Shown here piece after piece: positions 5,152-39,219 of a stretch of 40,283 nucleotides of DNA. The position numbers and the translations under genes are program-made. Below the pieces are notes generated by a model. It was not told the origin of the DNA. It did no database searches and saw only the letters and a program-made list of their open reading frames with translations. Origin of the DNA: Myxococcales bacterium (lineage in GTDB: Bacteria; Myxococcota_A; Bradymonadia; Bradymonadales; Bradymonadaceae); the NCBI GenBank assembly GCA_007119595.1, contig SKPJ01000178.1:1-40283 (forward strand), given 5' to 3'. How positions within the stretch are numbered: the first letter of the stretch is position 1; every line of letters begins with the position of its first letter.

Positions 5152-5160
5152 GCGTCGCAG

Positions 5161-11831: not shown

Positions 11832-11949
11832 ATCTTAACGCACCGGCACTGAGGAAACCAATTCCCTCCTTCACGCTCGCCGCACCGGTGTTCATCACCT
11901 ATGGTGCGGTCGATATTCGAACTCAGCGTTCCCGAATCGAGGAGTTGCC

Positions 11950-12534: not shown

Positions 12535-12543
12535 AAGAGATCC

Positions 12544-13902: not shown

Positions 13903-14134
13903 AGATTGCTAGCCCGACTCCGTGTTTCTGTGTTACAGTTCACAAGTCATAGACGACGTATGTGTTTTACAGAACGGAAGACGCTTATTTTTTGCGTCCA
14001 CTTTCAGCTTTGAGCGACCTGGGCCGAGCTCTTGAGCAGGGGGTAGATTTTCACTCTACTGACGAGGAGCGGCGGTTGCGATAAGGGCAGCGTTTCTGTG
14101 CAATTGACAGAACCGGGTCACGCAGGCAGCTCCA

Positions 14135-18478: not shown

Positions 18479-18694
18479 CGGAACAGTGGGTGGAAAGAGG
18501 TTGTGACAATGGTCACATTAACGGGAAGCCGTCGAGACGCCAGTAAATTCAGCGCCCGCCGGCAAACGGTGAAGTTGCAAGAACAGCAGTTGTATTTGAT
18601 GTTGCGATAACCGAAATTGATTCATCGCGCTGCCACCACGACGCCATCCACTACGGGTGTGAACGCTTTGACAACCCATGGAGATGACGAGTTT

Positions 18695-19755
<1,061 letters not shown>

Positions 19756-19850
19756 GAAGCTGTAAAAAATTCTCCCATCGGCATTCGCTGGCTGATTTTT
19801 ATCGCTCTCTTTGCGCTCAAGCCTCGACGAAGTCCTACGGATACGCCGTT

Positions 19851-20597: not shown

Positions 20598-22105
20598 TTA
20601 CTCTGTCGAGCCGGATGTCGACTCAGCGATTGACTCACACTGACGAACGCGACATAGAAAAATCCAAATTGGAACAAGAGCAAAAAGGGGAGACTCGCCA
20701 GGGAGTGGCCAACATCGGTGACGATGCACCAGATGGCGTAACTAAACCACAGGCCAAATCCCGCTTCCACGATCGGCGACAGCGACATCTTTCCGATATA
20801 CAGCTTCGACGTCCAGCTTTCGTCGAGCTGATCGATGGCGTATTTCGGTGTTCGCACAAAGGGGGTCTCATATCGAAACATCGCCTCCACGACGCCCCGG
20901 GCATTGTTGATCGACAAGCCGATCCCCAACCCCAGCACGGCCGGCAAAAGCCTCAGAATCTCCCGACGGGAACGGCCCGTTTCCCGTTGCGAGACCCAAT
21001 AAAAATAACAGATCGAAAAAGTCGCCCCGAAAAAGATGGGAAGGTCGAGCAGCAACACCTCATACCAACCCTGTTGGATGCGGACCAACGTCGCCATCGG
21101 CATCAATAGGGCGAGGATGACCATCAGTACATATGCAATATTGCCCGTCAGGTGATAGATGGCTTCGAGCTTGATTTTCCAGGAAAAATCACTGCGAAGC
21201 ACCGCGGGAAGCACCTTGCGTGCGGTCTGCAATGCCCCTTTCGACCACCGGTGCTGCTGGCTTTTGAAGGCATTCATCGTCACCGGGATCTCACTGGGAA
21301 CCGTGAGGTCGCGCAGAAATCGAAATTTCCATCCCGCAAGTTGTGCGCGATACGACAGATCGAGATCTTCGGTCAGTGTCTCGTGTTCCCACCCTCCGGC
21401 CTCGTCGATCGCGGCCACCCGCCAGATGCCCGCTGTGCCGTTGAAGTTGAAAAATCGCCCCGAGCGATGGCGTGCAGTATGCTCGAGCACGAAGTGACCA
21501 TCCAACAACACCGCCTGCGCCTTTGTCAGCAAACTAAAGTCGCGGTTTATATAGTCCCAACGAGCCTGGACCATACCGATGGAATCGTCCGTAAAATGAT
21601 GGACCGTGCGGCGCAGAAAGTCCGGCTTCGGTATAAAGTCGGCGTCGAAGACTGCGACGAATTCTCCCCGTGCCTGGCGAAGACCCTCTTGCAGTGCTCC
21701 GGCTTTATAGCCATGTCTATCCACTCTGTGTATCAAAGAGATATCGACACCGCGATCTCTCCAATCTTGAACCCGACGGCGAGCTCGCTCAGTGGTATCG
21801 TCGGTGGAGTCGTCCAGGATCTGAATCTCGAGCCGATCTGCGGGGTAATCCAGACGACACACTGCATCAATGATGCGATCGACGACGTATCGCTCGTTGT
21901 ATAAGGGCACCTGAACGGTGACGAATGGGAGCTCACCGTCTGAATATCGTCGCTTCGGCTCCGGATCATCGCCCGTGGCATACTTGCGATAAAGGCGCAC
22001 GATCGCGTACCGATGAAAGCCGTACATTGCGAGCACGGCCAGTACTGCGAAATACCCCAGAAGAATAATGAGCTTCCAGGTGGCGTAGTCTTCTAACAGC
22101 GTCAT
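20576..22105 (-). CDS. Membrane-embedded processive family 2 glycosyltransferase (cellulose-synthase/CslA-like, QxxRW type).
   Basis: The ORF is 509 aa. It has an N-terminal TM segment, then VQVPLYNERYVV, ILDDSTDDT, VAVFDADFIP, TEDLDLSYRAQLAGWKF and QQHRWSKG, followed by C-terminal TM helices. Its 3' end overlaps the thiE 3' end by 22 nt. Confidence 0.8.
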   Translation of the reverse strand: MTLLEDYATWKLIILLGYFAVLAVLAMYGFHRYAIVRLYRKYATGDDPEPKRRYSDGELPFVTVQVPLYNERYVVDRIIDAVCRLDYPADRLEIQILDDSTDDTTERARRRVQDWRDRGVDISLIHRVDRHGYKAGALQEGLRQARGEFVAVFDADFIPKPDFLRRTVHHFTDDSIGMVQARWDYINRDFSLLTKAQAVLLDGHFVLEHTARHRSGRFFNFNGTAGIWRVAAIDEAGGWEHETLTEDLDLSYRAQLAGWKFRFLRDLTVPSEIPVTMNAFKSQQHRWSKGALQTARKVLPAVLRSDFSWKIKLEAIYHLTGNIAYVLMVILALLMPMATLVRIQQGWYEVLLLDLPIFFGATFSICYFYWVSQRETGRSRREILRLLPAVLGLGIGLSINNARGVVEAMFRYETPFVRTPKYAIDQLDESWTSKLYIGKMSLSPIVEAGFGLWFSYAIWCIVTDVGHSLASLPFLLLFQFGFFYVAFVSVSQSLSRHPARQSNHPPQSA

Positions 22106-23994: not shown

Positions 23995-24849
23995 TCAGCC
24001 AATTGTCTTTGCAGTTTCCGTGGCCCCGTCGATCCGAAGCAGCTCCCGAGCCTGTGCGACGGAAGCTAGAGGGCGCTTTCGTCGCCGTGCATATTCCACC
24101 ACTTTTTCGACCAATTCAAAGGAGCCACGGGCCAATCGACCTTTCTTCAAGTAGATATTGTCTTCCAGTCCCACCCGCACATGGCCTCCGTGCTCCACAG
24201 CAAAGCGCGCCAGGGGAAGTTCGTGACGTCCCATTCCGGCCACCGACCAGGTACAGTTCTCGGGGATCGAGTTCACTAGAAATTCGAGATTTCGCTGCGA
24301 CGCTCCCATCGCCCCTGGAACGCCGAGCACGAAATCAAAATGAAGCGGGCTTTCCAAAAGCCCTTCGTCGCATAATCGCAACGCGGTGTCGATCATCCCC
24401 GTATCAAAGACCTCGATCTCGGGACGAATACCGAATTTTTGTAGCCGTTTGGCGATGGTCCGAATCGTCGGCAGAGAGTTCATGAAGACTTCGTCGCCGA
24501 AATTGACCGTTCCCGTCGTCAAGGTAGCCATATGTGGTCGCAGCGAGAGGGCTTCGATGCGCTGCTCCACGTCCATTCCCACCGCTCCACCGGTGGAAAA
24601 TTGCACCAATATATCTGTGCGCTGGCGGATGGCATCGAAGATCGCGGCGAAGGTCTCGCGATCCTGAGTCGGTGTGCCGTCGTCTCGACGACCGTGGATA
24701 TGGACCATTGCGGCACCAGCGTCGGCGCAGCGAAGAGCCTCGTCGGCGATTTCTTGCGGAGTGTATGGAACATGCGGGGTCTGTTCCCGCATGGTCTCGG
24801 CGCCGACGATGGCGGCCGTAATGATCAGGGGAGCAGTCGGTTCAGTCAT
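23995..24849 (-). CDS. kce: BKACE-family beta-keto acid cleavage enzyme (3-keto-5-aminohexanoate cleavage enzyme-like, DUF849).
   Basis: I trimmed the ORF to the ATG at 24849 (MTEPTAPLIITAAIVGAE). PYTPQEIADEALRCADAGAAMVHIHGR.DDGTPT, plus a TIM-barrel-like remainder containing HVRVGLEDN, matches the BKACE pattern. Confidence 0.75.
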   Translation of the reverse strand: MTEPTAPLIITAAIVGAETMREQTPHVPYTPQEIADEALRCADAGAAMVHIHGRRDDGTPTQDRETFAAIFDAIRQRTDILVQFSTGGAVGMDVEQRIEALSLRPHMATLTTGTVNFGDEVFMNSLPTIRTIAKRLQKFGIRPEIEVFDTGMIDTALRLCDEGLLESPLHFDFVLGVPGAMGASQRNLEFLVNSIPENCTWSVAGMGRHELPLARFAVEHGGHVRVGLEDNIYLKKGRLARGSFELVEKVVEYARRRKRPLASVAQARELLRIDGATETAKTIG

Positions 24850-25037
24850 GGCATTGGAGATGGCAGAAGAGGGAAGTAGATGAGAGAAGACGAGAATTCG
24901 AGGCACGATTCATTGGCCGACCCGAAGCTTCTTCGGCTTCCGAAAGCTCGTCCCCGATCGCTGCGGGCAATGGGTCGAACTTGTGATGGACCCAATACGC
25001 AACGCGTAGAGTAGATAAACGTCAGATACAGGTCGTT

Positions 25038-25415
25038 TCAATGCAAAACCACACAGGTTCCACTGGCGCGACAGACGGCGATGGGCTCGTCCAACACCTC
25101 TGCCCGCGAGGGTTGATCCGGGTCACCGACCAGCCGAATGACCTTGTGGGCCTCAAAGGACATTTTACGGCTCGTATTGCCCACCTCGGTGATCGTCCCC
25201 GTGGCTTCGATGTAGTCACCGGCGTTGACGGGGGCCAGAAACTCCACGGAGTCGTAGGCTCGAAACAGACCCTCATCGCCATCGTGCCGGATCAACAATT
25301 CCGTCGCCACGTCACCAAATAATTGCAAAATATAAGCGCCGTCGACCAGATTCCCCGCATAGTGGGCTTGCTCCATGCCGATACGCTGACGGATGAGTAC
25401 TTCGTCGCCGTTCAT
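25038..25415 (-). CDS. Small hotdog-fold protein, possibly 3-aminobutyryl-CoA ammonia-lyase (Kal-like).
   Basis: I trimmed the ORF to the ATG at 25415, which has an AAGGA RBS. The protein is 125 aa. [24 protein letters not shown] and [30 protein letters not shown] look like a hotdog helix plus sheet. It sits directly upstream of and on the same strand as the kce-like gene, as kal does in lysine-fermentation clusters. Confidence 0.5.
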
Positions 25416-25434
25416 GATCAATCCTTGAGAGTAG

Positions 25435-25487
25435 AAAAAATTAAAAAGCCCGTCATTTACCACCTCAGAGGATGGTAAACGACGGGC
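25435..25487 (-). terminator. Strong rho-independent terminator after the 25510-27546 lipoprotein gene.
   Basis: A 15-bp stem (25448-25462 pairing with 25473-25487, with one G-U pair) has a 10-nt loop. On the minus strand it is followed by UUUUUAAUUUUUU. It lies 22 nt past the stop codon. Confidence 0.85.
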
Positions 25488-25509
25488 TCAATGCAACCAA
25501 CTACGGGCC

Positions 25510-27546
25510 TTATGGCGATGCTGAAGGAAGACTGTGATTGGGGGTCAGCACGTCCTGGAAATCCACATAGGGTGTTTCGGCCCACTCGATATTGCCGAGG
25601 TACCAAAAGTCGCCGGTGCCGTTGAGACGCTTTTCGTACTGGTCGTGGAGATAATCATCGAAGTACACGCGCACTCGGGCATCGGCCGGTCCGTGGTTTT
25701 TGTCATCGAAGTAATGAACCCCGAGCCGATATCGCTCCCCGAGTGCCGGATCGGTGTGGTTGATATTCTCCGGATTTTCGCCGTAGAGGTCGTCGATGTC
25801 CAGAACTGCGTAACCGTATTCACCCCAATCTTGCTCGGGGTACCAGTAGTAGATCGTATCGGAACTTCCCCAATTGTCGTTGACGGCGGGGCTCAGATAG
25901 TGGACGTCGAGGTCGGTACCAATACCCATATCGCTATTGGGTCCGCCGTAGGTAGAGTCAACCTCCGGGGCACTCCAGGTCAGTTGAATATGAATATCTT
26001 CGGTGGGGGCGGCGAGAATATCGACGATTGCGGGCTCGCAGTTGCGCAGCCCCGTCTCGTCATAGACCGTCAATTCGATCTTGAAATCACCAACAATATC
26101 GACCTCGAATTGCGGCTCCGGCTCAAAGGGCGAGGGCTGAATTTCAGACATCGACCCGTCGGGGCGGGTGATCACCGACCATTCGTAGGAAAGATCGGTA
26201 CCATCGGGATCCTCGGATCCCGCGCTGGTGAGGTGGACGACATCCTGGTTGGTGGCGATCACCGTGGTATCCGGTGCCGCCGCTCCACCGACACTTCCGG
26301 CGGCCACCGCCACGGGACATTCGGCATCGACACCATTTCCGGTGATCGGAATCCGCAAATTTGGATTTCTGGTATCGTTGCTTTCGATGAGCAACTCGCC
26401 CTCGTCCTCCGCTTCATCGATTGGACTATAGGCGATGACGGTAGTGGTGACGTCGCCGGGGGTCAGGATGTAGGTCTCGTCGGGCAATGTTCCCGGCTCA
26501 CCGCCTTCTTGGATGGAGAAGACGCCTCCTGCGTCCTCCGAGATGCTTACGCCTTCCAATTCCAAATCCGCTTGCGGAGAACAATTGCGCAGGGTCGCTG
26601 TGTGATGGGTGGTGTTGTCGATGGCCGACGGTCCAAAGGCAATCTCGCCGTCGCCGACGACCTCCAGGCAGGGCTCACCGCTGTTGCCACTCAAATCGAG
26701 GGTATAATCGCCCGCGTTGTTTTCGATCAGTACTGAACCTTCTTTTGGATCTTCGTCATCGGGTTCAAACCACACCCGCATATAAACCCGGTCTTCATCG
26801 CTTTCGAGGTGCGTCATCGGCGGGGTGTCCGAATCTTCTTCAACAGGGGGATAACTTCCGTCCTCGAATCCCCCGGACATAAATGCGATCTCGAAGTGCT
26901 CGTCGCCGGAGGTGACGAAGATGTCGCCCAATTCCAGGGTGCCGGCACCGATATTTCGAATTTCGACGGGTTCCCATTCTCGATAGCCCGGCGGGGTCTG
27001 GGGAAAGTCGACATGGGAGGGATTGACGAAGATTTCGGCGCCGAAGCCGGCGGTTTCGATCTCGATTTCGGCGGGGTCGGTGTTGGGATCGTTGGTCGAC
27101 ATACGAATCAATCCGGCATGCTCTTGCTCGTCGGTGGGCTCGTATTTGACCTGAAATTCATGTTCCTCATGTTCCTCCAGCGTCACCTCATCGGGCCAGT
27201 CGCCCGATTTGCTCAGCGAGTCCCCTACTTCGTTGATCAATTCGATATTCGTCAGCCGCAGACTGCCAGTGCCCGTATTTTCGACCCACACGCTGCGAAC
27301 GTCGTTTTCGCCGACGCTAAGCTGTGAGAAGCCGATCGACGCCGGGGCGGCGCTAAATCGCGGTGCATCGCCGGTGATGATTCCACCTCCGCCATTTCCG
27401 CCGCCTCCTCCTCCGTTGTCGGCGGCGGCGTTTTCGCCGCCCTCGTCTTTCCCACAGGCCATCACAACAAACCCGGCGAGACTGGCAAAAGCCAGCACGA
27501 GGAAACATTTTCTAATAAAAAATCGAAAGGAGGGGAAGCTCTTCAT
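25510..27546 (-). CDS. Lipoprotein with a Gly-rich tether, three Ig-like (ASH/choice-of-anchor-D-like) domains, a PKD-like domain and a YfaP/DUF2135-like C-terminal domain.
   Basis: The ORF is 678 aa. The signal peptide ends in the lipobox VVMAC, followed by NGGGGGGNGGGG. A pattern recurs three times (F..v.vG....r.v.v.N.G.g.L.l..i). SEDPDGTDLSYEWSV is PKD-like. The C-terminus reads IHIQLTWS...DLDVHYLSP...DIDDLYGENPENINHTDP...YRLGVHYFDD...ARVRVYFDD. Confidence 0.8.
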   Translation of the reverse strand: MKSFPSFRFFIRKCFLVLAFASLAGFVVMACGKDEGGENAAADNGGGGGGNGGGGIITGDAPRFSAAPASIGFSQLSVGENDVRSVWVENTGTGSLRLTNIELINEVGDSLSKSGDWPDEVTLEEHEEHEFQVKYEPTDEQEHAGLIRMSTNDPNTDPAEIEIETAGFGAEIFVNPSHVDFPQTPPGYREWEPVEIRNIGAGTLELGDIFVTSGDEHFEIAFMSGGFEDGSYPPVEEDSDTPPMTHLESDEDRVYMRVWFEPDDEDPKEGSVLIENNAGDYTLDLSGNSGEPCLEVVGDGEIAFGPSAIDNTTHHTATLRNCSPQADLELEGVSISEDAGGVFSIQEGGEPGTLPDETYILTPGDVTTTVIAYSPIDEAEDEGELLIESNDTRNPNLRIPITGNGVDAECPVAVAAGSVGGAAAPDTTVIATNQDVVHLTSAGSEDPDGTDLSYEWSVITRPDGSMSEIQPSPFEPEPQFEVDIVGDFKIELTVYDETGLRNCEPAIVDILAAPTEDIHIQLTWSAPEVDSTYGGPNSDMGIGTDLDVHYLSPAVNDNWGSSDTIYYWYPEQDWGEYGYAVLDIDDLYGENPENINHTDPALGERYRLGVHYFDDKNHGPADARVRVYFDDYLHDQYEKRLNGTGDFWYLGNIEWAETPYVDFQDVLTPNHSLPSASP

Positions 27547-27674
27547 CGTCGATCATCCTTCTTCGTTGATGGCCTGGCAAAGTTGCGAAACCATGAATGG
27601 ATCAAGCCGCTCCAAACGCTCGCCGAGCCGGTAGATTCGACGACTGCTCACCAGCGCCTGAAAACAGTTCCGAA

Positions 27675-27703
27675 AGTATAGAGATCGGCTCATGACGCGT
27701 CAA
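27675..27703 (-). promoter_or_regulatory. Candidate sigma70-type promoter for the 25510-27546 gene.
   Basis: On the minus strand, TTGACG (27703-27698), a 17-nt spacer and TATACT (27680-27675) lie about 130 nt upstream of the ATG. The -35 box sits within a 10-bp palindrome, TGACGCGTCA (27694-27703). Confidence 0.45.
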
Positions 27704-27824
27704 TTACGAACCGAAACCCCCGCCAACAAGCGCTCAAATGCAGTGAGCTTGTCCGATTGAAGCCTGCTCAGAACAGGGGGTCTCGTTGGTGCATTTTCTC
27801 AACGGTGCAACACAGAAAAGTGCA

Positions 27825-29873
27825 TTAGTTGCCTGGAAAGCCGGCATCCTCCAAAAGCTCGTCGATGATCTGTAACTCATTGATATCGGGAGTGTTGGGA
27901 GGACTGACACCGATGTCGGCGACATACCAAAAATCACCGGTGGTCGCCTCCGGTCCCGCTCCACCTCCGGCGGTATGGAGGCGTTGTTGTTTTTCCAGGA
28001 TCAGCGCGTCGTGGAAGAAGATCCGTACCCGGGCGTCCGTTGCACCATATCCCGGTTGGTCACTGAAATAGTAGACCCCCACGGAGTAGTCGTAGTTGGC
28101 ATCCGGTCGGTCGTGGTTGATATTTTCCGGCTCTTGGCCGGTGCGATCGTCGATATCGAGACTGATCTCGCTGCCGTCGTTCCACTCGGTGGTGGGGTTG
28201 GGGTTGGCCCAGTAAACGCCCCACGGTTCCTCACTCCAGTTGCCGTTGGGGTGCAAGTAGTGCAGATCAAGATCGACGCCCGTGCCGTCTTGGGCGGCCG
28301 GGACCTCCCACGTCAATTCGACGTGGATCGCCGCCTGAGGCTCAATTTCAATGATGATCTGAGCCGGATCGCAGGTCGCGAGTCCCGCTCCATCGTAGAC
28401 CACCAATTCCACCACGTAGCGACCGGCGATGTCAGCGGTCAACGAGGGCTGGGCGGACTCCGGATTTTGCAGTTGGGCCGTAGAATTCAATGGTTGATCG
28501 GTAAGCGACCACTCGTAGACGACTTCGACGTCGGGCTCGTCGGGGTCATAGGATTGCCGGCCGTCGAATTCGATCTCGTCGAGGGGAACGCCGAAGACTG
28601 AATGTTCATCCCACATTCCGGTTTCTGCAATTCTCGCTTCCGCCTTGGCGATCGGGCACTCCAGATCGACGCCGTTACCGACGATGTCCACCAGCAGGGG
28701 AGAGGCGTCGTCGGTGCTGCTGACGCTCAGCACCGCCTCGTCATCCACCGCATCCAACGGGGTATAGGTCATCAAAAAACTCATATTCCCGTCCGGTTCC
28801 AGAGGTTCGACGCCGCCGTCGGCGAACTCCGGAGGCAATGTGTCTTCGTTGATCGCAAAACGAACGTCTTCGTCTTCTTCAAACTCTCCTTCCTCGTCGA
28901 GATAGCCGATGGCCATATCGGTGATCACCGTCTCCGAAAGACCGCTGCAGTTTTGGAGGGTCACCGTTTGTTGACTCGTATTATTGATGGAGGCTCGCCC
29001 GAAGTCGATATAGTCACCGACGTACTCCAGACAGGCGGCATCACTATTGGCGCTGACAGCGACGCGATGCTGCGGCACATTGGTCTCGATGATGAGTTCG
29101 GTCCATTTGAAATCGTCGTCCGGTGCTTCGAAGTGGACGCGAACCCACATCGATTCGTCGGCAGCCACGACCTCCTGGTGAGTGTCCGTGTCATACGATT
29201 CGGGAGCGACCACCGAGCCGTCGCTTACCTCGGAGGCGTCTGCCTCCGAGATATCTGCGGGAAAGGAAATATCGAAGTGGTTTTCGTCTCCACCGGACAG
29301 GAAGATATCTTCGATCTCCAGGTCCGAGTAGCCGATATTCTGGATCTCCGTCAGGCGCCACTCCTGACTGCCCACCGGTGTGCGATCGAATACCACCGTT
29401 TCCTCCGCGAGAAGCTCCGGAGCCGGCGTCGGTGCCGAGACTTCAATATCGACCTCGGTCATCTCCGAGATATTGGTCCGAAAGCTCAACAGGGCATCGT
29501 GTTCTTCGGCGGCCACCGGAGCATACTCAATTTCCAGGGTATAAAACTCGTCGGGATCCAGGCTCAACCGGTCATCCCAGGGATTGAGTAATTCGAAAAC
29601 TTCATGGGTGCCCGGTCGAGAGCTGTCCTCTCCAAGGGACAGTTCCGACAGCGTGATATCACTTTCTCCGGTATTGGTCAGGGTGATCGTATCGATGGCC
29701 GAACTGCCGACGTTGACATCCGAGAACGTCACCGCCGCCGGATGGATCTCGAGTTCGCCGGGGTCGTCGCCGCCGATTCCCTCCTCGCCGCAGCCACTCA
29801 GCGCAAAGCAGAGAACAAAAATCGGTGTGATTCGACGTAGTAGGTGCGCGGAGTATTTTCCAGATGCATTCAT
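27825..29873 (-). CDS. Lipoprotein and diverged paralog of 25510-27546: Ig-like x3, PKD-like, YfaP/DUF2135-like C-terminus.
   Basis: I trimmed the 30092 ORF to the ATG at 29873 (MNASGKYSAHLLRRITPIFVLCFALSGC, with a lipobox), giving 682 aa against 678 aa for the paralog. The domain order is the same. The C-terminus reads IHVELTWE...VDLDLHYLHP...DIDDRTGQEPENINHDRP...YSVGVYYFSD...ARVRIFFHD. Confidence 0.8.
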   Translation of the reverse strand: MNASGKYSAHLLRRITPIFVLCFALSGCGEEGIGGDDPGELEIHPAAVTFSDVNVGSSAIDTITLTNTGESDITLSELSLGEDSSRPGTHEVFELLNPWDDRLSLDPDEFYTLEIEYAPVAAEEHDALLSFRTNISEMTEVDIEVSAPTPAPELLAEETVVFDRTPVGSQEWRLTEIQNIGYSDLEIEDIFLSGGDENHFDISFPADISEADASEVSDGSVVAPESYDTDTHQEVVAADESMWVRVHFEAPDDDFKWTELIIETNVPQHRVAVSANSDAACLEYVGDYIDFGRASINNTSQQTVTLQNCSGLSETVITDMAIGYLDEEGEFEEDEDVRFAINEDTLPPEFADGGVEPLEPDGNMSFLMTYTPLDAVDDEAVLSVSSTDDASPLLVDIVGNGVDLECPIAKAEARIAETGMWDEHSVFGVPLDEIEFDGRQSYDPDEPDVEVVYEWSLTDQPLNSTAQLQNPESAQPSLTADIAGRYVVELVVYDGAGLATCDPAQIIIEIEPQAAIHVELTWEVPAAQDGTGVDLDLHYLHPNGNWSEEPWGVYWANPNPTTEWNDGSEISLDIDDRTGQEPENINHDRPDANYDYSVGVYYFSDQPGYGATDARVRIFFHDALILEKQQRLHTAGGGAGPEATTGDFWYVADIGVSPPNTPDINELQIIDELLEDAGFPGN

Positions 29874-30422
29874 ATCGAAACCGTCGGTATTCTTGATTGT
29901 CAGCCGCCGTTCAAGACAGCGGACCGCATTCACGGATTGAGTCGATTCGATCCTACACGGAATCGACTGCGGTGGACGGGCCCAAACACGGTGCCCAGAT
30001 TGCGGGAGACTAGCGCAAGGCGCAAGGGTCGTCAAAGGCTCCGGCGGCCCGGGTTGATTCCGGTGCTCAATGGAGCAGTACGATCGGCCCATACGGAGTT
30101 TTGATGACGCTTTGGGGGCCTCCCGGGTTTGTTCGACGGCTGCATGACGCTAGTGGTGTTCGGCGGAAGTCCTGAGCCTTATTCGGCGAGGACCCGGTGA
30201 CGAGGTCGAAGCCGTCGAAGTGAGGCGATGGATGTGTATCGTCAAACACAGACGGCAAAGAGATCGTCGTTCAGGACCGGCGAAGAATGGTTTAAGACTT
30301 CTGTCGGGCATCACTAGGTTGAATAAATTGTGACGCCATGGCGTCGAATCCAGTGTCGAACAGTCACCAAGTCACCAAGTGTGACACAGGCGCACAAACC
30401 TGAACTGCTGGGAGAGAGGAAG

Positions 30423-31799
30423 ATGAGAGAGCCGACGAGATGGAGGGTAGGGAGCACGGGGGTATTGCTGGGATGGTGCGCCATACTCCTGGTGGCGGCG
30501 GGATGTCTGGTCGTCGATGGCAACGGTGACAACGAAAACGGACACCACGGCGATCATGACGGGGGGGAGTGTTATACGGACTGCTACGAATACGAGACCT
30601 GCAATACCTATTGCGATTCCCACGGTTGCTACGAAGACACCGATAGTTGCGTACGGCGAGAAACCTGCGCCATCACCTGTGATATCAATGCCTCGGACCC
30701 CGATTCTGCAGATGCGTTCGGTGAGCCCGAGGTCTGTTATAGCGACTACGACTGTAGCCAGGGGCGGATCTGTACCAATGGGAAATGCACTGCGGCAGAC
30801 ACGGATCAACGAGGAAGCGCCGGATTGTGTCAGAGCTGTGAGAGTGACCGGGATTGCATCGATGAGGGAGCGCTTTGTCTGGGCATCTTTGATGACGACT
30901 CCGACAGGCCGGCCGAGACCATCTGCGGGCGTGCTTGCGACAACGATCAGGATTGTCCGAGCGATTTTTCCTGTATGGAGATCTCCGATGCTCCCGGTGA
31001 ATCCGATCAGTGTGTCCCCATGATCGATGCCGACAATGAGCACCTGTGCGCAGCAAGTGATGATCTCGAATGTGTATCCGCCGGTGAGTGTGCACTCGGT
31101 GAAAGCTGCATCGACAACCGTTGTCAGCCTCCGCCGGGCGCGCAGTGTACGGGGGACTCCGATTGTGGAGACGACGAGGTGTGCCATGTCTTCGAATGCA
31201 TCGCCGCCGACGACGCGCCATGCCTTGCGGGATCCGATTGTGGAGACGACGAATTGTGTATCGACGGGGAGTGCTGTGCCGCCGGCGAGTGCAGCAGTGA
31301 ACCCCAGAGCTGTGTGTTCAACGCCGATTGTCCCTCCGATCAGCGCTGTGTCGATGGCGCCTGCACCGCCACCTGCGATGACCACACCGATTGCGGCAAT
31401 AGCGAGCGCTGCCGTCAGGGTATCTGCGAGTTTATCGAGTGCAATCTTACCTCCGACTGCTCCGCCGGTGAGATCTGTGTGGAGGCTTCATGTGAGCAGG
31501 CCTGTGACCGCGATGATAACTGCGCCCATGGCTTTATATGCTCCGAATTTGGATTCTGTACCGTCGACCCCGATGTTGAATGCCGTTCGTCGGCCGAATG
31601 TGCTTCCGACGAATTATGCAATGAACAGGGCGTCTGTGAGACCCCCTGTGATTGCAATCAGCAATGCGGCGAAGGCGATGTCTGTGATGAGGAAATAGGC
31701 CTGTGCGAGACACCGGACGCAGGGGCCGACGAAGTTCAGTGTGATGACGACTGTGATTGTCCCAGCGGGGAGACCTGTGAAGACGGTCAATGTGTCTAA
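30423..31799 (+). CDS. Lipoprotein composed almost entirely of short DxDC-type cysteine-rich repeats.
   Basis: I trimmed the 30330 ORF to the ATG at 30423, which has a GAGAGAGGAAG RBS. MREPTRWRVGSTGVLLGWCAILLVAAGC contains a lipobox. At least 12 repeats fit C-x3-[DS]-x-[DE]-C-x4-5-C-x2-G-x-C, for example GDSDCGDDEVCHVFEC, NADCPSDQRCVDGAC and HTDCGNSERCRQGIC. Confidence 0.8.
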   Translation: MREPTRWRVGSTGVLLGWCAILLVAAGCLVVDGNGDNENGHHGDHDGGECYTDCYEYETCNTYCDSHGCYEDTDSCVRRETCAITCDINASDPDSADAFGEPEVCYSDYDCSQGRICTNGKCTAADTDQRGSAGLCQSCESDRDCIDEGALCLGIFDDDSDRPAETICGRACDNDQDCPSDFSCMEISDAPGESDQCVPMIDADNEHLCAASDDLECVSAGECALGESCIDNRCQPPPGAQCTGDSDCGDDEVCHVFECIAADDAPCLAGSDCGDDELCIDGECCAAGECSSEPQSCVFNADCPSDQRCVDGACTATCDDHTDCGNSERCRQGICEFIECNLTSDCSAGEICVEASCEQACDRDDNCAHGFICSEFGFCTVDPDVECRSSAECASDELCNEQGVCETPCDCNQQCGEGDVCDEEIGLCETPDAGADEVQCDDDCDCPSGETCEDGQCV

Positions 31800-31862
31800 A
31801 GCACTGACACCGGAAGGGGTCGATCGTTACCACGAACGCTCGATCTCGATCCGAAGCACATT

Positions 31863-31901
31863 CCCCCGCTGTGCCGTTGGTGCAGCGGGGGTTGTTCGTG
31901 T
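31863..31901 (+). terminator. Probable intrinsic terminator after the cysteine-repeat lipoprotein gene.
   Basis: A 9-bp GC-rich stem (cccccgctg at 31863-31871 pairing with cagcggggg at 31883-31891) has an 11-nt loop, followed by ttgttcgtgtg. It lies 64 nt past the stop codon, in a convergent gap. Confidence 0.5.
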
Positions 31902-31911
31902 GTCGATGCGC

Positions 31912-32535
31912 TCAGGAAGTCGGGGCCGGATCGTCGCCGGGCTCAGCTCTTCGAAATTCGAAGCGCTCGCTCTGTGTGCACTCCATCTGAGCGTGGTATT
32001 GGGCCGCCAGATCCGTGTTGCACGCTTCGTCGCCCTCGATGGGAAGATCGAGGTCGTAATGACTGCGGACCAATTCCAGAGTGGAATCGTCGGGAAGAAG
32101 TAGAGTACGAACCGTCGAAAGGCGGCATTGGGTTTGAAGTGGATCCGTCTGGGTCAGGCTCGCCGTATGGTGGACTGCTTCTGCTCGCAGATGCTCTGAG
32201 TTCCAGGGAAGCTCGTTTTCCGGGGCCACCACCCCGGCGCAGGCATCGGCGCTTACGCATGGCAGCAGATCCAGCCTTGGCGGTCCCCCGTCGTCGACTT
32301 CGATGACCGCCGAGATTTTCAGATGTGCAAAAGGAGGGCTTCCACCGGTCGGTTCACAACCGGTGTCGTCGGCGGCGTAGGATTCGACGACCCAATCTCC
32401 GGCGAATTCGTCGGGAGTCGGCGGAGCAGACGTCGCCGAGCCCGTTACATCACATCCATCGCAGCCAGCGAGGAGGATGGTCACTCCGGCGGTGACGATT
32501 AGAAGCATTGTATTTTTCGAGACGGTCAATCTCAT
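31912..32535 (-). CDS. Small lipoprotein of unknown function, translationally coupled to the upstream ceramidase-like gene.
   Basis: The ORF is 207 aa. The signal peptide ends in the lipobox LLAGC, with Asp at +2. Its ATG (32535-32533) overlaps the upstream gene's stop (32534-32532) as ATGA. I recognise no family motif. Confidence 0.7.
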   Translation of the reverse strand: MRLTVSKNTMLLIVTAGVTILLAGCDGCDVTGSATSAPPTPDEFAGDWVVESYAADDTGCEPTGGSPPFAHLKISAVIEVDDGGPPRLDLLPCVSADACAGVVAPENELPWNSEHLRAEAVHHTASLTQTDPLQTQCRLSTVRTLLLPDDSTLELVRSHYDLDLPIEGDEACNTDLAAQYHAQMECTQSERFEFRRAEPGDDPAPTS

Positions 32536-35408
32536 GGATGGAACTCCAGTGTCGCCGACGTAGAAGCCTGATTTCCGAGGGTGTCGCCGGCTTCAATCTC
32601 GACTCCCAACTGCTGGCCCGGCTGAAGCTGGCCATTGAGATCGATCTGAACCCGTGTGACTGGTGTGCCGTTTTCGGGCCCGGTGGTCGCACTAAAGTCC
32701 TGGACACCGATCTGTGATCCCGGCGGCTGATCGGTGATGGTGACGTCCACCGAATCGATCTGGTCGGCGTCGACGAAGATGGGCTGGCCCGTTGCGACAT
32801 CGCGATGATGCATCCGATACGAGCCGGTTACCGCTCCTCGATCTCCAGATACCTCCTCGACCCTCAATTCCTCAGCGGCCGGATAATCCAGACGAAATGC
32901 GATCGTATTTTCATCGGCCACCGCCAGCTCACCGATCATCAGCTCTGTCGATGGCACCAACTCAAAGGATTCGGTGACGGCCTCGTACGGGACGCGCTCG
33001 TCGATGTCGGCGTCGAGGTGGTGGCCATCAATGCGGAAGCGATAACTTCCGGTGGGGAAATCCACCAATTCCTCCCAGTAGATGACCCACTCGTATTGAT
33101 CGTCACCATCGCCTTCTCGAAGGCGGGTGAGCATGACGAACTCGCGGTTGTCATAGGGCAGATAGTTGTCCAGTTGGACCGTTTGAAACTCACCTTCCTC
33201 GAGCCTCTGGAGGGTGGCACGGGGAGCCTGGGGCATCTCGGCGCCGGGGTCTCCGCCGAGCCAGGCGAACTCCACGAATTGGCGTCGCTCCACCACCGCT
33301 GGAGGCTGTTCCACGATGGTGCCCACCTCAGCGGAGTCGGTTGCATCCACCGCAAAGGGCTCGTGACCGCGAGAGGAGAACTGATCGGGATAGGGTGCGG
33401 GATGGGCGGGGGCGTCGATTTCTCCCTTCATCAAACCCACGGCCTCCACGGCGCGATCGACCAGAAAGTCGCCGAGATTGTGGCCCCAGGGGCTCATCTG
33501 GGTTTCATATCCGCCCTGAAGATAGGAGAAGGCGTAATTCGGATATTCGTCGGGAGCCTTAGGGGTGGAGATCCCCGGAAAGGGAGGCAACTCCCCGCGT
33601 AGATTGGTGGGAAGAAGATAGAGTAGATGGTCCTGCGCGTAACCCCAGGTAAAGGAGTTGAAGGGATCGATATCAAAGCTGTCGCGCAACTCGCGCTGGA
33701 CCTGCCATCCCAGAGGCATCGTTAATTCTCCCGGCATGGTGACCAGCGTCAGATCGTTGAGTTCAAAGGCGCTGATCTGGCTCTTCGCCAAGATGGTCGC
33801 CGGGCGATGGGCGAGCATGTGATGGAGGCCGATGGCACATCCGTAGTCATTCGGGTCGGAGTGATCAGCGAAATCCTCGCTCGTCTCCGATCCACACATC
33901 AGCGCGCCGAATGGGTAGTCGTCGAATTCGCGTTCCCCATAATCGAGGTGCTCATGGACGATGGAAAAGCGGTGGGTGTGGCCGGAGAACGACCACTGCT
34001 CGGTGGTCTCCATGGACGTGATGGCATCGAAGGTGCGGTCAACCAGGTGGACCCCCAGGTTTTCAAAACGCTGGGTATGGCGGTGGCCATTGCTACGACC
34101 GCGGGGCGACATAGATCCACCGTTTTGGTTGAAATAATACACCGGCACGTGGCGCGCGTAGCGGTCGCCCAGGGTGTATTCCAGTTGTTTTTCGATTCCC
34201 ACCATGACGTCGTTGTTGGCGTAGGAGCCGCTGTGGACGGTGCCGTGGGTACCGAAACTGACCAGGACGCCCCGTGGATTGTCGTCGGGATCGTCGATTC
34301 GCATCAAGAGCACGCGGTTGTCGTCAAAGGGCGGGGTTTCACCTCGGCGATCGCTGGAGATGACGTCGTCGACATCGAAGGATTCGACGACCTCCCAGCC
34401 CATCTTGGCAGGCGCCAGATCATCGAGGGCTTCCATGGCGGCTTCCGTCAATGACTCGACGAGCCATCGATAGGACTCCTCGTGATACTCGTCGATTCCG
34501 AACAGCCCCATTCCGTCGCCGAGGATGTCGTTGGGATCCGGCAGTTGCCAAAAGCGGGCCGGTCCGGAGTGGGTATGAGAGCCGGAGATGACGAGACTGG
34601 AGCGCCAGTCGTGCCCAGTTTCTTGCTGGAGGTTGCGGGAGACCGCTTCGTGGACCGCCATCGACGGAAAGATGATCGGTGCCCGCAAAAATAACAGTTG
34701 CCGCTGCCCATCGTCGAGGGCTACGCCGCCGGCGTGGAGTCCGTGCATCTTACCGTGACTCGCCGCCAGGGCGTCGACGTAGCGACCGTCATTGATGGCC
34801 GCCCGAGAGCCGTAACCTCCGAGGGACAGGCCGATCGGAAAATGCATCAACACATTGCTAAATCCCGCCTGTAGTGGCGCCGATTGATCGCCGCCGGGGT
34901 GTTCACCCGTCAAATCGCCGGTGAACTCGCGGCATTTTCCGTCGTCGGTGCACACATGGCCGTCGGCGCATTCCTGGTCTGTGAGGCAGGAAATCCGACA
35001 ATGTGACCCGCCGCAATGGGCCCGGCGTGCCAGATCGTCGTCGATATCTTCGAAGGCCGACACGCAGGGTAGCCAGGATGTGACGGACGAACACTCCGGT
35101 GCCTCGTGGCACTCCTGTTCGTGACAGTACTCGTCGTCAGCGCAATCGCCTTGAATTTGGCATCCCTCATCGGGGGTGACGTCCGGGGAGGCGTCTTCTT
35201 GGTGTTGGTTTGCGTCGGGTTCGCCGTCGGCATCGTCGGGGTCTGCCACATCGGATATTTCATCGACATCCCCCTCTTCTTCGATATCATTGCCCACATC
35301 TTCGACCCCGGCGTCTGGATCGACGGTCTCGTCATCATCCGACGAGCAGGCAACGGCGGTGGTCAGACACAGAGTCATGGCGGCGAGTAGGGAGGTGAAT
35401 CGAGTCAT
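32532..35408 (-). CDS. Lipoprotein: acidic linker, DxDC-type cysteine module, neutral/alkaline ceramidase-like catalytic region and a beta-rich C-terminal extension.
   Basis: I trimmed the 35603 ORF to the ATG at 35408 (MTRFTSLLAAMTLCLTTAVAC, with a lipobox), giving 958 aa. The cysteine module spans aa 83-159 (QGDCADDEYCHEQEC, TDQECADGHVCTDDGKC). GGYGSRAA...MHGLHAGGVALDDGQRQLLFLRAPIIF...SLVISGSHTHSGPARFW resembles the N-terminal motif block of neutral ceramidases (MGY...RA.v....THTHSGP). Confidence 0.6.
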   Translation of the reverse strand: MTRFTSLLAAMTLCLTTAVACSSDDDETVDPDAGVEDVGNDIEEEGDVDEISDVADPDDADGEPDANQHQEDASPDVTPDEGCQIQGDCADDEYCHEQECHEAPECSSVTSWLPCVSAFEDIDDDLARRAHCGGSHCRISCLTDQECADGHVCTDDGKCREFTGDLTGEHPGGDQSAPLQAGFSNVLMHFPIGLSLGGYGSRAAINDGRYVDALAASHGKMHGLHAGGVALDDGQRQLLFLRAPIIFPSMAVHEAVSRNLQQETGHDWRSSLVISGSHTHSGPARFWQLPDPNDILGDGMGLFGIDEYHEESYRWLVESLTEAAMEALDDLAPAKMGWEVVESFDVDDVISSDRRGETPPFDDNRVLLMRIDDPDDNPRGVLVSFGTHGTVHSGSYANNDVMVGIEKQLEYTLGDRYARHVPVYYFNQNGGSMSPRGRSNGHRHTQRFENLGVHLVDRTFDAITSMETTEQWSFSGHTHRFSIVHEHLDYGEREFDDYPFGALMCGSETSEDFADHSDPNDYGCAIGLHHMLAHRPATILAKSQISAFELNDLTLVTMPGELTMPLGWQVQRELRDSFDIDPFNSFTWGYAQDHLLYLLPTNLRGELPPFPGISTPKAPDEYPNYAFSYLQGGYETQMSPWGHNLGDFLVDRAVEAVGLMKGEIDAPAHPAPYPDQFSSRGHEPFAVDATDSAEVGTIVEQPPAVVERRQFVEFAWLGGDPGAEMPQAPRATLQRLEEGEFQTVQLDNYLPYDNREFVMLTRLREGDGDDQYEWVIYWEELVDFPTGSYRFRIDGHHLDADIDERVPYEAVTESFELVPSTELMIGELAVADENTIAFRLDYPAAEELRVEEVSGDRGAVTGSYRMHHRDVATGQPIFVDADQIDSVDVTITDQPPGSQIGVQDFSATTGPENGTPVTRVQIDLNGQLQPGQQLGVEIEAGDTLGNQASTSATLEFHP

Positions 35409-35646: not shown

Positions 35647-35706
<60 letters not shown>

Positions 35707-35733
<27 letters not shown>

Positions 35734-36618
35734 TTCTTATTATCCGACGTCCAGTCCGATTCATTCGGCGTCGCCAGTACGCCCGCCCAGCTCACGGTGA
35801 CTGAGCAGCCATCTTTGGCCGGCAAGGAGCTGGCCATCGGCCCGCCACTCGTCGTCGAAGTCCAGGACGTCATGGGCACCCGCGTCGCCGGCGATAACGA
35901 GACCGTCGTCAACCCACAGCTTCAGGGCATAGGCTCGTTGTCAGGCGGCGACGCCGAGGGCGTTCAGGCCGAAGAGGGACGAGTCACCTTCGAAGATCTC
36001 CGCGTCGATACTCCACAACTCGACGCCACCCTCCAGTTTGTCGCCGACGACCTGAGCGAGGATACCACCGAGCCCTTTGATGTGGTCGGTGATGGCGTGG
36101 CATTGGAGCTCGTCTCCGAAACGGTGCCGCTCAATCAACATCAGGAGTCGACGGTCAATATGATCGTCGACGCCGACGCGCCGATGGTCCTCATGATCGT
36201 CGACGCCAACGAATTGCCCGTCTTCTTCGATGACACCACGGAAGTCAGCGCCTCGCTCAAGCCGGAAAGCGGAGACCCCGACGCTACGCTTTCCGGTACG
36301 CTGACGGTGACCGCCGAAGAAGGGGTGGTGGCCTTTGACGACCTATCCATCGATCTGCCCGGCGACGACTACGTCCTCGAATTTAGCGCTCCAGGGTTGA
36401 TCGGCGTACAGACGCAGCCCTTTGCCATCTACGGTGACCAGCCGGTTGACGACGACTTGTCCGAGGAGGAGCAATACGGTGAGGAGTCGGGCACCGCAGA
36501 GGGTTGTTCATCGAGTTGCATGAGCATGCGCACTCCGGGGGACATGACCTGGCTTTTCATCGCGCTTGCCCTACTGGCGATTGTCGCCGCTGGTCGAAGG
36601 CGTTCAGCGAACGCTTGA
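35707..36618 (+). CDS. Ig-like-repeat surface protein with a MYXO-CTERM-like C-terminal sorting signal. The 5' end is doubtful and the gene may be truncated or a pseudogene.
   Basis: The ORF is 303 aa. The C-terminus, EGCSSSCMSM...WLFIALALLAIVAAGRRRSANA, gives a Cys motif, a TM helix and an Arg cluster. The body has repeated units of the form ..V.D..G..V.....V...L.......L.G......EG...F.DL.ID. An in-frame TAA at 35680-35682 blocks upstream extension. The first start (GTG 35707) lies inside the tRNA gene, and I see no N-terminal signal peptide. Confidence 0.5.
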
Positions 36619-36759: not shown

Positions 36760-39219
36760 TCAATCGCGCTCTATATCCAGGGCTATAGTGACATAAGGAT
36801 AGGGCGCACCAATCCGACTTCTAAACCACAGCAGGCGTGTCGGTTGGGGGCCAGCCCATAGGGGGTGATTCGGGTTTTGCAGCAAGATGCTCAACATCAC
36901 CAACTGCTCCCACATCAGTTCGGTCTCCCCGGTCTCCACCACCACCGCCACTTCTCCGCGACCGGCGCGCCAGGTCGCGACGGTGGGCATGACCGACAGG
37001 AGTCGCTCGAAGATTTCTCGCCTATCCTCTCCTTCCCCAACGCAGATGGTGGGTCCCGCCGTCCGGCAACCGTCGATGGGTTTAAGCGCCACGCTATCTT
37101 CAACGATCTGAATACCGTCACTCCGGAGGTGTACGCCGATCTTTGGTGGGTCGGAGGCCACGGATGCAAACGGCGGTGGCCACGTCGAATCGACCTTCAA
37201 TGTAGACCACGCAAGCCGCTGTTCAGCCATGGATTCCGACGTCACCAACGGTCGAATAAACTGTGGCGATGCCCCGCCTCTTGGAGTCCATAGCCGCAGG
37301 ACCGTCGCGGCGTCCATTCCGCCCGGTGCAACCAATCCAACGGTGGATACGGCCTGGTCTCTTAGCTCATCATCGGCACTGGCGAGTGCCAATGGGGTGC
37401 GCATCGAAAGGTTTTGAAGCCGATCGACGAAGAGCTGCTGGTGTGCTGAGTCCGCCAGTTCCCCGGCGCGCCCAATCAAGCGATCGCCGACATATAGTCG
37501 CTGGTTCTCATCGATGGTGATGTAGGTGTGGACCACATCGCCAAATGTCGTGGAGGGACGCTGTGCATCGAGAGCAGCGCCCCCATCGGGCAGATCGGCC
37601 GTGGCTGCTCGCTGCAGCCGCGCGGAATACTCACAGGCCAGGCGTTCGCCCATCGAACAGGATTCTCCGTAGAGAGTCACCGCTCCTTCCAATCGTCCAC
37701 GGCGCTCGGCCTGCAGGCCCAGATACCACAGATGGCGGCTCACCACGACGGAGAGCTGTGGCAATTGAGGGTGATGCCTCTCACACCGACGGGCTTGTTC
37801 CAATACGGAGAGAATTCGCCGATCCAATATTCCACGCCCCTCACGGGGGGTAATGCGCTGCAATTGCCCCAGACTTTGAGTGGCAAAAAGCCGCACGTCG
37901 AATGCGCACGACGGTAGCCGGTCCAACTCCACGGCAACCTCCGGCAACGACCGATGCCCCTCGACGAGCACTTCCCCGTCGAGATCCTCCGCCTTGGATT
38001 GGAGTACTTCATAGGTCCCACCGGCGGATACTCGCCGCTGTAATACGTCTCCACCGCGATCAAAGAGAGCGGCCAGTAATTGGGCGAATCCACAGGAATC
38101 CTGAAGCAGCACGCCGACCGACTCCAGGGGCTGTTGTTGCGCCTCTTTGAGAGCCAATGGTTCACATATCGTGTCGTCCGGGGCTGGATTCTCATCATCT
38201 GCTTTGCCCCATCGCGATCGGGTTGTCACCGCCGATACCGTTTCGGGCCCATCATCGAGATGAAGTTCTACGGTAGCGTCTGCATACACCGATTGTATCT
38301 GGTGGAACTCGTGAAACACATCGGCCGCTCGGTGATTGCTCTGAGCCCAGAAATGCATCAGATGGGACGTAGTTGCTCTATTCTCGCCGACCGATGCGAC
38401 ATATCTATCGAATGCCGTGGCCGCCTGGTGAATCGCCATCAACTGCCCGATGCGGCGGTAATCAATGTGGAGTGAAAGCGGGGCCTCTGAGCGGGCGAAT
38501 TGGCTTCGCGCCGCCGAATTGCTCCGCCCCGACTGTTGACCGGGCGCATTGAGGAGATGAAAAAAGGCGGTGGCGTCGTCGCCCTGCAAGTCGGGATGAA
38601 GTGGCACTCCAAAATCAATCACCACCCGGTCGCCGCTGATCTGCGACTGCCAGGCAACCCCCTGTTCCCGAGATAACTTCCATTGCAGTTGACGCTGCAA
38701 TGCATCGGCTCCTCCCTCGCCTGCCGGTAGCACCAGACGGACATGAAACCACTGTGGATACCACTCCAGCGGTACGATCGGCGACTGGGATATATGGTCC
38801 ATAAACTCGGAGCTTCCGAGCGGTGTCAAAGCCAGATAGGCCGCCGAATCCCTATCCAATTCCGTCGGCGCTGTACCATCGATTAGCGTCCCCGCCAGGA
38901 CATCGAGCATCCTTTGTGCCACCCGATCATCATCGCCGTGTATCCCGGCCAACAATTGGCGTATCACGCCCTGTGTGGCGGCCAATGACTCCTCGACATA
39001 AGCCGGATCATCGAGTTGAACTCGAAGCATCAGAGCAGCCGACGCGACAAGCGGATCAACGGGGTCTACCTGTGGCCTGGGCGTTTCTGCTCGGGTCGCC
39101 GGCTCCGGGGCCGTCGTGGTGCTACAGCCCATAACGCAGATCAGAAAGCAGATCAGAAAAAGGACCACCCATCGCACTATTAGCCCGATCGATTTACGGG
39201 AACTCCACCTCATCGGCAT
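36760..39219 (-). CDS. Large lipoprotein of unknown function (orphan-like).
   Basis: The ORF is 819 aa. The signal peptide ends in the lipobox ICVMGC. The frame is long and uninterrupted, and its residue composition looks like that of the neighbouring genes by eye. I recognise no catalytic or repeat motif. Confidence 0.7.
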   Translation of the reverse strand: MPMRWSSRKSIGLIVRWVVLFLICFLICVMGCSTTTAPEPATRAETPRPQVDPVDPLVASAALMLRVQLDDPAYVEESLAATQGVIRQLLAGIHGDDDRVAQRMLDVLAGTLIDGTAPTELDRDSAAYLALTPLGSSEFMDHISQSPIVPLEWYPQWFHVRLVLPAGEGGADALQRQLQWKLSREQGVAWQSQISGDRVVIDFGVPLHPDLQGDDATAFFHLLNAPGQQSGRSNSAARSQFARSEAPLSLHIDYRRIGQLMAIHQAATAFDRYVASVGENRATTSHLMHFWAQSNHRAADVFHEFHQIQSVYADATVELHLDDGPETVSAVTTRSRWGKADDENPAPDDTICEPLALKEAQQQPLESVGVLLQDSCGFAQLLAALFDRGGDVLQRRVSAGGTYEVLQSKAEDLDGEVLVEGHRSLPEVAVELDRLPSCAFDVRLFATQSLGQLQRITPREGRGILDRRILSVLEQARRCERHHPQLPQLSVVVSRHLWYLGLQAERRGRLEGAVTLYGESCSMGERLACEYSARLQRAATADLPDGGAALDAQRPSTTFGDVVHTYITIDENQRLYVGDRLIGRAGELADSAHQQLFVDRLQNLSMRTPLALASADDELRDQAVSTVGLVAPGGMDAATVLRLWTPRGGASPQFIRPLVTSESMAEQRLAWSTLKVDSTWPPPFASVASDPPKIGVHLRSDGIQIVEDSVALKPIDGCRTAGPTICVGEGEDRREIFERLLSVMPTVATWRAGRGEVAVVVETGETELMWEQLVMLSILLQNPNHPLWAGPQPTRLLWFRSRIGAPYPYVTIALDIERD

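Follow-up and report, generated by a model that had tools for sequence, protein, structure and literature searches.

Do five neighboring lipoprotein genes in a Bradymonadales-type genome encode one surface system, or do they share a stretch of chromosome without working as a unit? The question is posed by contig SKPJ01000178.1 (GCA_007119595.1), whose full 40,283 nt are called the window here, and by five lipoprotein open reading frames (ORFs) in it, P1 to P5, at 25510-35408. An earlier note on this DNA had read the five genes as a surface system matching no named one. The window is chromosomal DNA of a Bradymonadales-type Myxococcota of the Lujinxingiaceae type, and its proteins have their nearest relatives in Lujinxingia, Persicimonas, Bradymonas and metagenome-assembled genomes (MAGs) related to these. 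We consider it rather likely that the five genes make up a clade-specific envelope lipoprotein gene neighborhood, in which P5-P4 is the sole tight pair, and not one integrated machine. Two components vary known kinds of protein: a lipoprotein of the ceramidase superfamily that has gained a Cys module and is paired with a partner gene, and lipoproteins with immunoglobulin (Ig)-like and PKD domains that end in a DUF2135/TerD-like domain without an adequate Pfam model.

All five consecutive ORFs of the earlier note were recovered, at the coordinates given in Table 1. Their lipoboxes (VMAC, LSGC, AAGC, LAGC and AVAC) all pass a PROSITE PS51257-type rule, which only 1 of the 18 remaining ORFs of the window passes, and by signal peptide and lipobox Cys rule P1 to P5 are predicted bacterial lipoproteins. 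A run of five such ORFs, given 6 positives among 23 ORFs, has an arrangement probability of 0.003, a value that overstates independence, because P1 and P2 are a duplication and P5 and P4 are an overlapping operon pair. The lipobox is kept in 81 of 98 P5-family proteins and in 21 of 22 P1-family proteins. The absence of a matching named system was borne out: a scan of the window with the PADLOC defense models returned no match to any component hidden Markov model, nor does a system model of NCBIfam or Pfam fit.

A ceramidase-like lipoprotein and its coupled partner

In P5, lipobox and acidic linker come first. At aa 83-159 (nt 34932-35162) lies a 12-Cys module, followed by a neutral-ceramidase-like catalytic domain (aa ~180-680) and by the C-terminal beta-sandwich of ceramidases (aa 682-816). 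The final 140 aa form a tail without match, for which a PDB sequence search also returned nothing. As a single sequence, P5 lies below the Pfam gathering cut-offs (28.1 versus 32.1 bits for Ceramidase_alk, 17.4 versus 30.5 bits for Ceramidse_alk_C), and far below that of the NCBIfam equivalog NF041649 (24.3 bits, cut-off 1200). A family profile of 30 sequences (alignment A1) matched human neutral ceramidase (4WGK, E 6e-18) and the Pseudomonas aeruginosa enzyme (2ZWS, E 8e-12), with the HTHSGP motif aligned, and most P5 homologs carry a precomputed PF04734 annotation. On these profile matches, P5 is assigned to the neutral ceramidase superfamily. The earlier note had called it ceramidase-like, and a check on whether it might leave that fold, made with the profile against 4WGK and 2ZWS, kept it inside.

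Residues H278, H280, H388, E561 and Y597 of P5 are invariant in 30 homologs. By residue counting in the profile alignments they correspond to H97, H99, H204, E411 and Y448 of the P. aeruginosa ceramidase (PaCD), and the histidines map to H194, H196 and H303 of the human enzyme. We take these PaCD and human residues, from the published structures, to be the Zn ligands and the catalytic His, and the predicted active site of P5 is apparently competent.

In common with the neutral ceramidases (human ASAH2, 4WGK; PaCD/CerN, 2ZWS), P5 has a detectable catalytic N-domain and C-terminal beta-sandwich, conserves HTHSGP, and keeps the Zn ligands at all four positions. It differs from them in that identity is only ~25%, and in its additional lipobox, acidic linker, 12-Cys module, 140-aa tail and coupled partner gene. 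P5 may be a lipid-anchored Zn-dependent amidase, kept off the membrane by the acidic linker and the disulfide-rich 12-Cys module. Its most likely substrate would be a ceramide-like lipid or another N-acylated lipid, whose N-acyl amide bond it would cleave either on the cell surface or within the periplasm.

The P5 family is conserved throughout Bradymonadales, where its members share 40-75% identity and are encoded by a single gene that often stands alone. Its 12-Cys module is near-invariant, whereas distant homologs in Nannocystis and Polyangia lack the module, and their matches start at about residue 176. Whether or not P5 and P4 act on envelope lipids, ceramidase-like lipoproteins that carry the 12-Cys module make up a conserved family that marks the Bradymonadales-type Myxococcota.

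Two further observations concern ceramidase-like genes in other genomes. Two differing P5-family proteins, P0010 and P0011 (937 and 941 aa), are assigned to the one 9586-bp contig SKNI01000658.1 (L007), which suggests that the ceramidase-like gene is duplicated in tandem in that MAG. In 17 MAG loci from Rokubacteria, Methylomirabilota, Binatia and Acidoferrum (L047, L048, L055, L057-L059, L061, L062, L064, L066, L070, L071, L077, L078, L080, L082 and L083), a short, distant ceramidase-N-like gene (match at ~10001-11100) is followed ~500-700 bp downstream by a same-strand murJ homolog (~11600-12900), a conserved pair without explanation.

The stop codon of P5 and the start codon of P4 overlap in ATGA, as the earlier note had reported, and the same overlap is found in L001 and L091. 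P4 evolves fast, with 24-64% identity where P5 keeps 48-75%. A homolog search of databases returned only three proteins, a metagenome scan for P4 found none, and the gene is restricted to one Lujinxingiaceae-type clade. Among nine P4 sequences, including orthologs translated from the loci, six Cys residues and a GxW motif are invariant. The Asp at +2 to which attention had been drawn is present in P4 itself, but is not conserved, with D, N, Q, K or A in the orthologs.

The AlphaFold2 (AF2) model of the P4 core, made from a 3-sequence alignment, has a predicted local distance difference test (pLDDT) score of ~90 and forms an antiparallel beta-barrel of 8-9 strands with a C-terminal helix. Its best Foldseek match was not significant (BFA1, E 0.014), and the weak matches were mostly calycin-type barrels (FABP, RBP4 and avidins, E 0.2-0.3, template modeling (TM) score <=0.35). 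A calycin (lipocalin/FABP/avidin) fold is a tentative assignment for the model, and a lipid-binding role is offered as a hypothesis only. P4 may be pictured as a small three-disulfide beta-barrel lipoprotein, translationally coupled to P5, that would bind a hydrophobic substrate or product, or would escort or regulate P5. Alone of the five genes, P5-P4 looks like a functional pair.

In L088, a distant MAG locus, the place of a P4-like gene is taken by a gene for a 129-aa zinc-finger protein of the DksA/TraR type (12754-13143), whose start shares 4 nt with the stop of the P5 ortholog.

Gene order in related genomes

P5 loci from 80 genomes, plus further look-ups, were compared, and a P5 clade was defined by neighbor-joining tree. 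Within this clade, the order P5-P4-P3-P2 was found in all eight informative loci, namely those of L. litoralis (L001; P5 ortholog DL240_17785) and L. vulgaris (L019), L006, L011/L086, L018/L092, L091, L093 and the window; clade members other than the two named species include several MAGs. Fragments of the same order are present in L005 and L008.

P1 behaves differently from this core. L086 has a single P1/P2 gene, with P1 missing. In L092, P2 and P1 are parted by three unrelated genes, for Usp, a 686-aa membrane protein and MscS, and in this L018/L092 sub-lineage the orientation of P3 is opposite to that at every other locus (the two peculiarities lie at 13499-14734 and 17259-22000). Within the P5 clade, P1 can therefore be dispensed with or separated.

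Outside the clade, none of P1-P4 was found within 10 kb of P5 in the loci checked (Persicimonas L002 and L009, Bradymonas L003, L010, L012/L087, L014/L088 and L016). Tested for synteny in related genomes, the P5-P4-P3-P2 core was stable in one clade and absent around P5 elsewhere, and the conserved five-gene system that the earlier note had envisaged across related genera held in that P5 clade only, with P1 absent or displaced even there. A 571-aa gene beside P5 in Persicimonas was considered as a hidden P3 equivalent and rejected, since its product has a lipobox but only 3 Cys.

The flank after P1 (4HBT-BKACE-UbiA-GT2) is collinear in most syntenic loci, though not in L092. Because this housekeeping flank is collinear as well, much of the conservation of the cluster is ordinary collinearity. 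The genes for 4HBT and BKACE (beta-keto acid cleavage enzyme), which adjoin P1 on its downstream side (23995-25463, minus strand), show 72-84% identity in most syntenic loci, far above the lipoprotein genes.

Consensus scans for terminators and promoters bear on whether the genes could be expressed together. They returned the two hairpins in Table 1, of which the one between P3 and P4 is probably a bidirectional terminator, and promoter-like sites upstream of P1. At least three transcription units would result, because of the hairpins after P1 and between P3 and P4, and because P3 is divergent from P2. The implied units are P5-P4; P3; and P2, possibly with P1.

Table 1. Features of the P1-P5 region, in coordinates of the window
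Feature	Coordinates	Strand	Remarks
Terminator-like hairpin	25446-25489	-	19-bp stem and T-run; immediately past the P1 stop, between P1 and the gene for 4HBT thioesterase
P1	25510-27546	-	678 aa; ORF call, Pfam/NCBIfam domains, lipobox, paralogy to P2
DUF2135/YfaP-like C-terminal beta-sandwich domain of P1	25513-26004	-	aa 515-678
P2	27825-29873	-	682 aa from an internal ATG; the ORF itself extends to 30092
DUF2135-like domain of P2	~27828-28337	-	
Divergent intergenic spacer P2/P3	29874-30422		549 bp; no Rfam family or tandem repeat
P3	30423-31799	+	458 aa; GGAGAGAGG Shine-Dalgarno sequence
GC-rich hairpin	31863-31891	+	13-bp stem; in the 112-bp gap between convergent P3 and P4
P4	31912-32535	-	207 aa; ATG overlaps the P5 stop
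P5	32532-35408	-	958 aa
tRNA-Leu(AAG)	35647-35733	+	240 bp upstream of P5; cluster boundary in the window genome only

The tRNA-Leu(AAG) gene upstream of P5 raises the idea that the block was acquired horizontally, as a genomic island that entered at the tRNA. Its GC content (0.54-0.61) is the same as that of the rest of the window, and no integrase or mobility genes are present. The upstream flank in L001 and L086 is MscS/baeRF/kinase, with tRNA-Leu absent from the equivalent site, so that the same block adjoins MscS/baeRF and not a tRNA in these genomes. The distribution of the block also tracks P5 phylogeny, and we regard an island as extremely improbable.

In three of the genomes outside the clade, the P5 ortholog lies just downstream of genes for a histidine kinase of the LytS type and a response regulator of the LytTR type (Persicimonas caeni L002, 6663-8734; Bradymonas sediminis L003, 7632-9862; and L087, a 7.5-Mb MAG, 4897-6977), a pair that is absent from the window. 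LytS/LytTR is a possible candidate regulator of the ceramidase-like gene in these genomes.

A stand-alone P5 with such a neighbor brings up a second explanation, in which P5, with P4, serves housekeeping by remodeling or recycling the cell's own N-acyl or ceramide-type envelope lipids, and P1-P3 are unrelated surface or matrix proteins, its neighbors in this family by chance. The conservation of the P5 family across Bradymonadales (40-75% identity, often stand-alone), its place downstream of an envelope-sensing two-component system in three distant genomes, and the metabolic and envelope character of the window neighbors (MurJ, GT2, UbiA, 4HBT and BKACE) all accord with it. Against it stand that ceramides made by these bacteria are putative, and that P4 is confined to the Lujinxingiaceae-type clade. 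Because of this confinement, the P5-P4 pair is not part of a conserved core function. We judge the housekeeping explanation unlikely, about on a par with the joint surface module considered below.

Ig-PKD paralogs and the cysteine-repeat protein

P1 and P2 are colinear and share 33% identity over 648 aa (E 4e-96). They had been described as paralogs with the same five-domain order, and this is the case: three Ig-like domains, a PKD domain and a C-terminal domain. In P1, a Gly-rich linker precedes three Ig-like domains of the choice-of-anchor D/ASH type; PKD occupies aa 426-504, and the C-terminus is DUF2135/YfaP-like. The Ig-like and PKD domains of both proteins were confirmed by Pfam and NCBIfam, with choice-of-anchor D (NF012200, cut-off 45) scoring 66.2 bits in P1 (two stretches) and 69.0 bits in P2 (three stretches). 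The PKD domain of ColH was the sole match in a PDB sequence search with P1. Distant relatives of P1 occur as tandem arrays of Ig-like paralogs, without a ceramidase or Cys-rich neighbor.

P1 and P2 resemble the choice-of-anchor D/ASH PKD surface proteins in scoring above the NF012200 cut-off and in having relatives in tandem paralog arrays. Unlike choice-of-anchor D proteins with a C-terminal sorting signal, they would be anchored by an N-terminal lipid, and they end in the DUF2135-like domain. As duplicated lipoproteins with three Ig-like domains and a PKD domain, P1 and P2 are most likely binding or adhesion modules like the choice-of-anchor D surface proteins.

The C-terminal motifs quoted in the earlier note are present, and alignment A2 gave DLDxH and LDxDDxxGxxPENxN as the invariant motifs of this domain. 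A Pfam scan of the C-terminal ~160 aa of P1 and P2 returned no match to DUF2135 (PF09906) up to E 10, and none of eleven family members matched over the domain above threshold. A distant member, P0127, came just short of the Pfam DUF2135 cut-off (21.7 versus 22 bits, E 2e-4), for which E. coli YfaP, the positive control, scores 66 bits. The Pfam model spans 48 positions, and the domain here ~150 residues. The proposed likeness to YfaP proved right as distant homology: hhalign of A2 against E. coli YfaP gave a probability of 96.3% (E 1.7e-9) over 92 columns at YfaP residues 143-237, spanning the DLDLH and GYGPE motifs.

YfaP and the P1/P2 C-terminus share the motif logic DLDLH ... D.D..GYGPE ... 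Y.V.V.YY; unlike E. coli YfaP, the domain here terminates Ig-PKD lipoproteins. YfaP/DUF2135 belongs to the yfaA-T-S-Q-P alpha-2-macroglobulin operon of E. coli. The alpha-2-macroglobulin association that the earlier note raised has no counterpart here, since YfaS, YfaQ, YfaT and YfaA are absent from the window and from the gene lists of the related loci.

An exhaustive profile search with the domain returned 4828 representative clusters at 50% identity, 2733 of them at E <=1e-10 (family proteins are listed as P0137-P0283). The domain is nearly always C-terminal and is combined with 0-3 Ig domains and PKD, occasionally with subtilase or other modules, and most of the proteins carry lipoboxes. 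No match was obtained in a PDB sequence search with the profile, and a literature search on DUF2135 found nothing.

The AF2 model of the P1 domain has a pLDDT of 94.5, and its best Foldseek matches in the PDB were the TerD-like structures 2QNG and 2QZ7 (probability 1.00, TM ~0.5), with DUF4425 also matched. The resemblance to the TerD family lies in these best structural matches and in clustered acidic motifs, which bind Ca2+ in TerD. It stops short at the sequence level, where no match was found, and at a TM of only ~0.5; moreover, TerD proteins are cytoplasmic, unlike the lipobox-bearing P1 and P2. The modeled TerD-like fold and the invariant acidic motifs suggest that the domain is probably a Ca2+-binding sandwich. 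Its description as a very large YfaP/DUF2135-homologous family with a TerD-like fold is independent of the lipid question posed by P5 and P4.

P3 contains 68 Cys in 458 aa, and 110 Asp and Glu residues versus 17 Lys and Arg. The earlier note had counted at least 12 DxDC repeats; the literal D-x-D-C occurs 6 times, whereas about 13 four-Cys units of the form C-x4-5-C-x5-C-x4-5-C are present. The other part of that claim, that the same repeat type is fused to the N-terminus of P5, is real, as the P3 repeats match the N-terminal Cys module of P5 orthologs (tblastn E ~1e-5). No DNA tandem repeats were found within P3, and a PDB sequence search with P3 returned nothing. Short four-Cys units are a feature that P3 and the P5 N-terminus have in common with Cys-rich proteins of Myxococcota (TIGR04201, DUF7107 and Stig1-like), but the matches of P3 to these families are weak, at 26 bits for DUF7107 and below the cut-off for TIGR04201 (Myxo_Cys_RPT). 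P3 would be an extremely acidic, cysteine-knotted repeat lipoprotein, which probably either forms a rigid stalk or binds cations as part of the surface.

Elsewhere in the window, two proteins of 794 aa (5161-7545, minus strand) and 1085 aa (8574-11831, minus strand) contain many Stig1-like Cys-rich repeats with GLUG motifs, and the former carries a lipobox. This genome is thus rich in secreted Cys-rich proteins, which are not special to the P1-P5 region.

The flanks encode MurJ, ThiG, ThiE, a GT2 glycosyltransferase, UbiA, BKACE and 4HBT thioesterase, which are housekeeping or envelope proteins, and a DUF4388 Ser/Thr kinase. The divergent spacer between P2 and P3 has the length of 549 bp given in the earlier note, and an Rfam search of the whole window, spacers included, matched the tRNA alone. 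A mechanically called ORF (35707-36618, plus strand) overlaps the tRNA-Leu gene, so that its true start must be later. Beyond the tRNA, an 819-aa ORF (36760-39219, minus strand) has no Pfam or PADLOC match.

A gene neighborhood or one assembly

Several points weigh against the neighborhood reading. The order P5-P4-P3-P2 is kept in 8 of 8 informative clade loci even where both flanks differ; L092, with another upstream flank and no 4HBT/BKACE, and the window, with tRNA-Leu upstream, both retain the core despite their changed surroundings. Such retention exceeds what simple collinearity would call for, and a functional link may exist. The four-Cys unit common to P3 and the P5 N-terminus could point to interaction, or to no more than common descent. 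Five lipoprotein ORFs in a row are unlikely by chance (the 0.003 given above), and the terminators and promoters that would divide them are predictions from consensus scans.

These genes might accordingly be grouped as one predator surface module, in which P1 and P2 bind the prey envelope, P3 is a disulfide-knot scaffold, P5 breaks down ceramides or sphingolipids of the prey by hydrolysis, and the lipid that results is handled by P4. Bradymonadales are known predators, and their lifestyle would suit such a module, as would the recurrence of P5-P4-P3-P2 in every informative clade locus despite flank changes and the inversion of P3, the lipobox on all five proteins, the Cys unit common to P3 and P5, and the intact active-site residues of P5. 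Yet in sister genera none of the four partners lies within 10 kb of the P5 ortholog, P1 is missing or out of place in some members of the clade, at least three transcription units are predicted, and the P1 family has other neighbors elsewhere. We hold this joint reading to be distinctly unlikely.

A more specific form would make the Lujinxingiaceae-type P5-P4-P3-P2(-P1) cluster a dedicated surface assembly that strips or harvests amide-linked lipids of prey, a predation device without described counterpart. The Ig-PKD-DUF2135 binders and the cysteine-knot stalk would place the ceramidase-like amidase and the lipid-binding beta-barrel against the prey envelope, where the candidate lipids would be sphingolipids, sulfonolipids and N-acyl amino-acid lipids of Bacteroidota prey. 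We consider this less likely still, and quite improbable.

A clade-specific neighborhood of envelope lipoprotein genes with one tight pair, P5-P4, is the reading we keep. From the surface system proposed in the earlier note, the domain calls and the coupled partner were retained, and the five-gene unit was not upheld as stated, in view of clade-limited synteny, a separable P1 and at least three predicted transcription units. The analysis shows the gene structure, the lipoboxes, the domain homologies, the conserved Zn ligands and the synteny within one clade. Cell location, substrates, what P4 does and whether the units cooperate are inferred, and binding or processing of prey sphingolipids would be pure inference.

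These findings overturn no current understanding. If P5 and P4 do act on envelope lipids of the predator, they would offer a tractable entry into the handling of amide-linked lipids by Bradymonadales, whether their own or those of prey, and L. litoralis and L. vulgaris, which carry the same cluster, are cultured.

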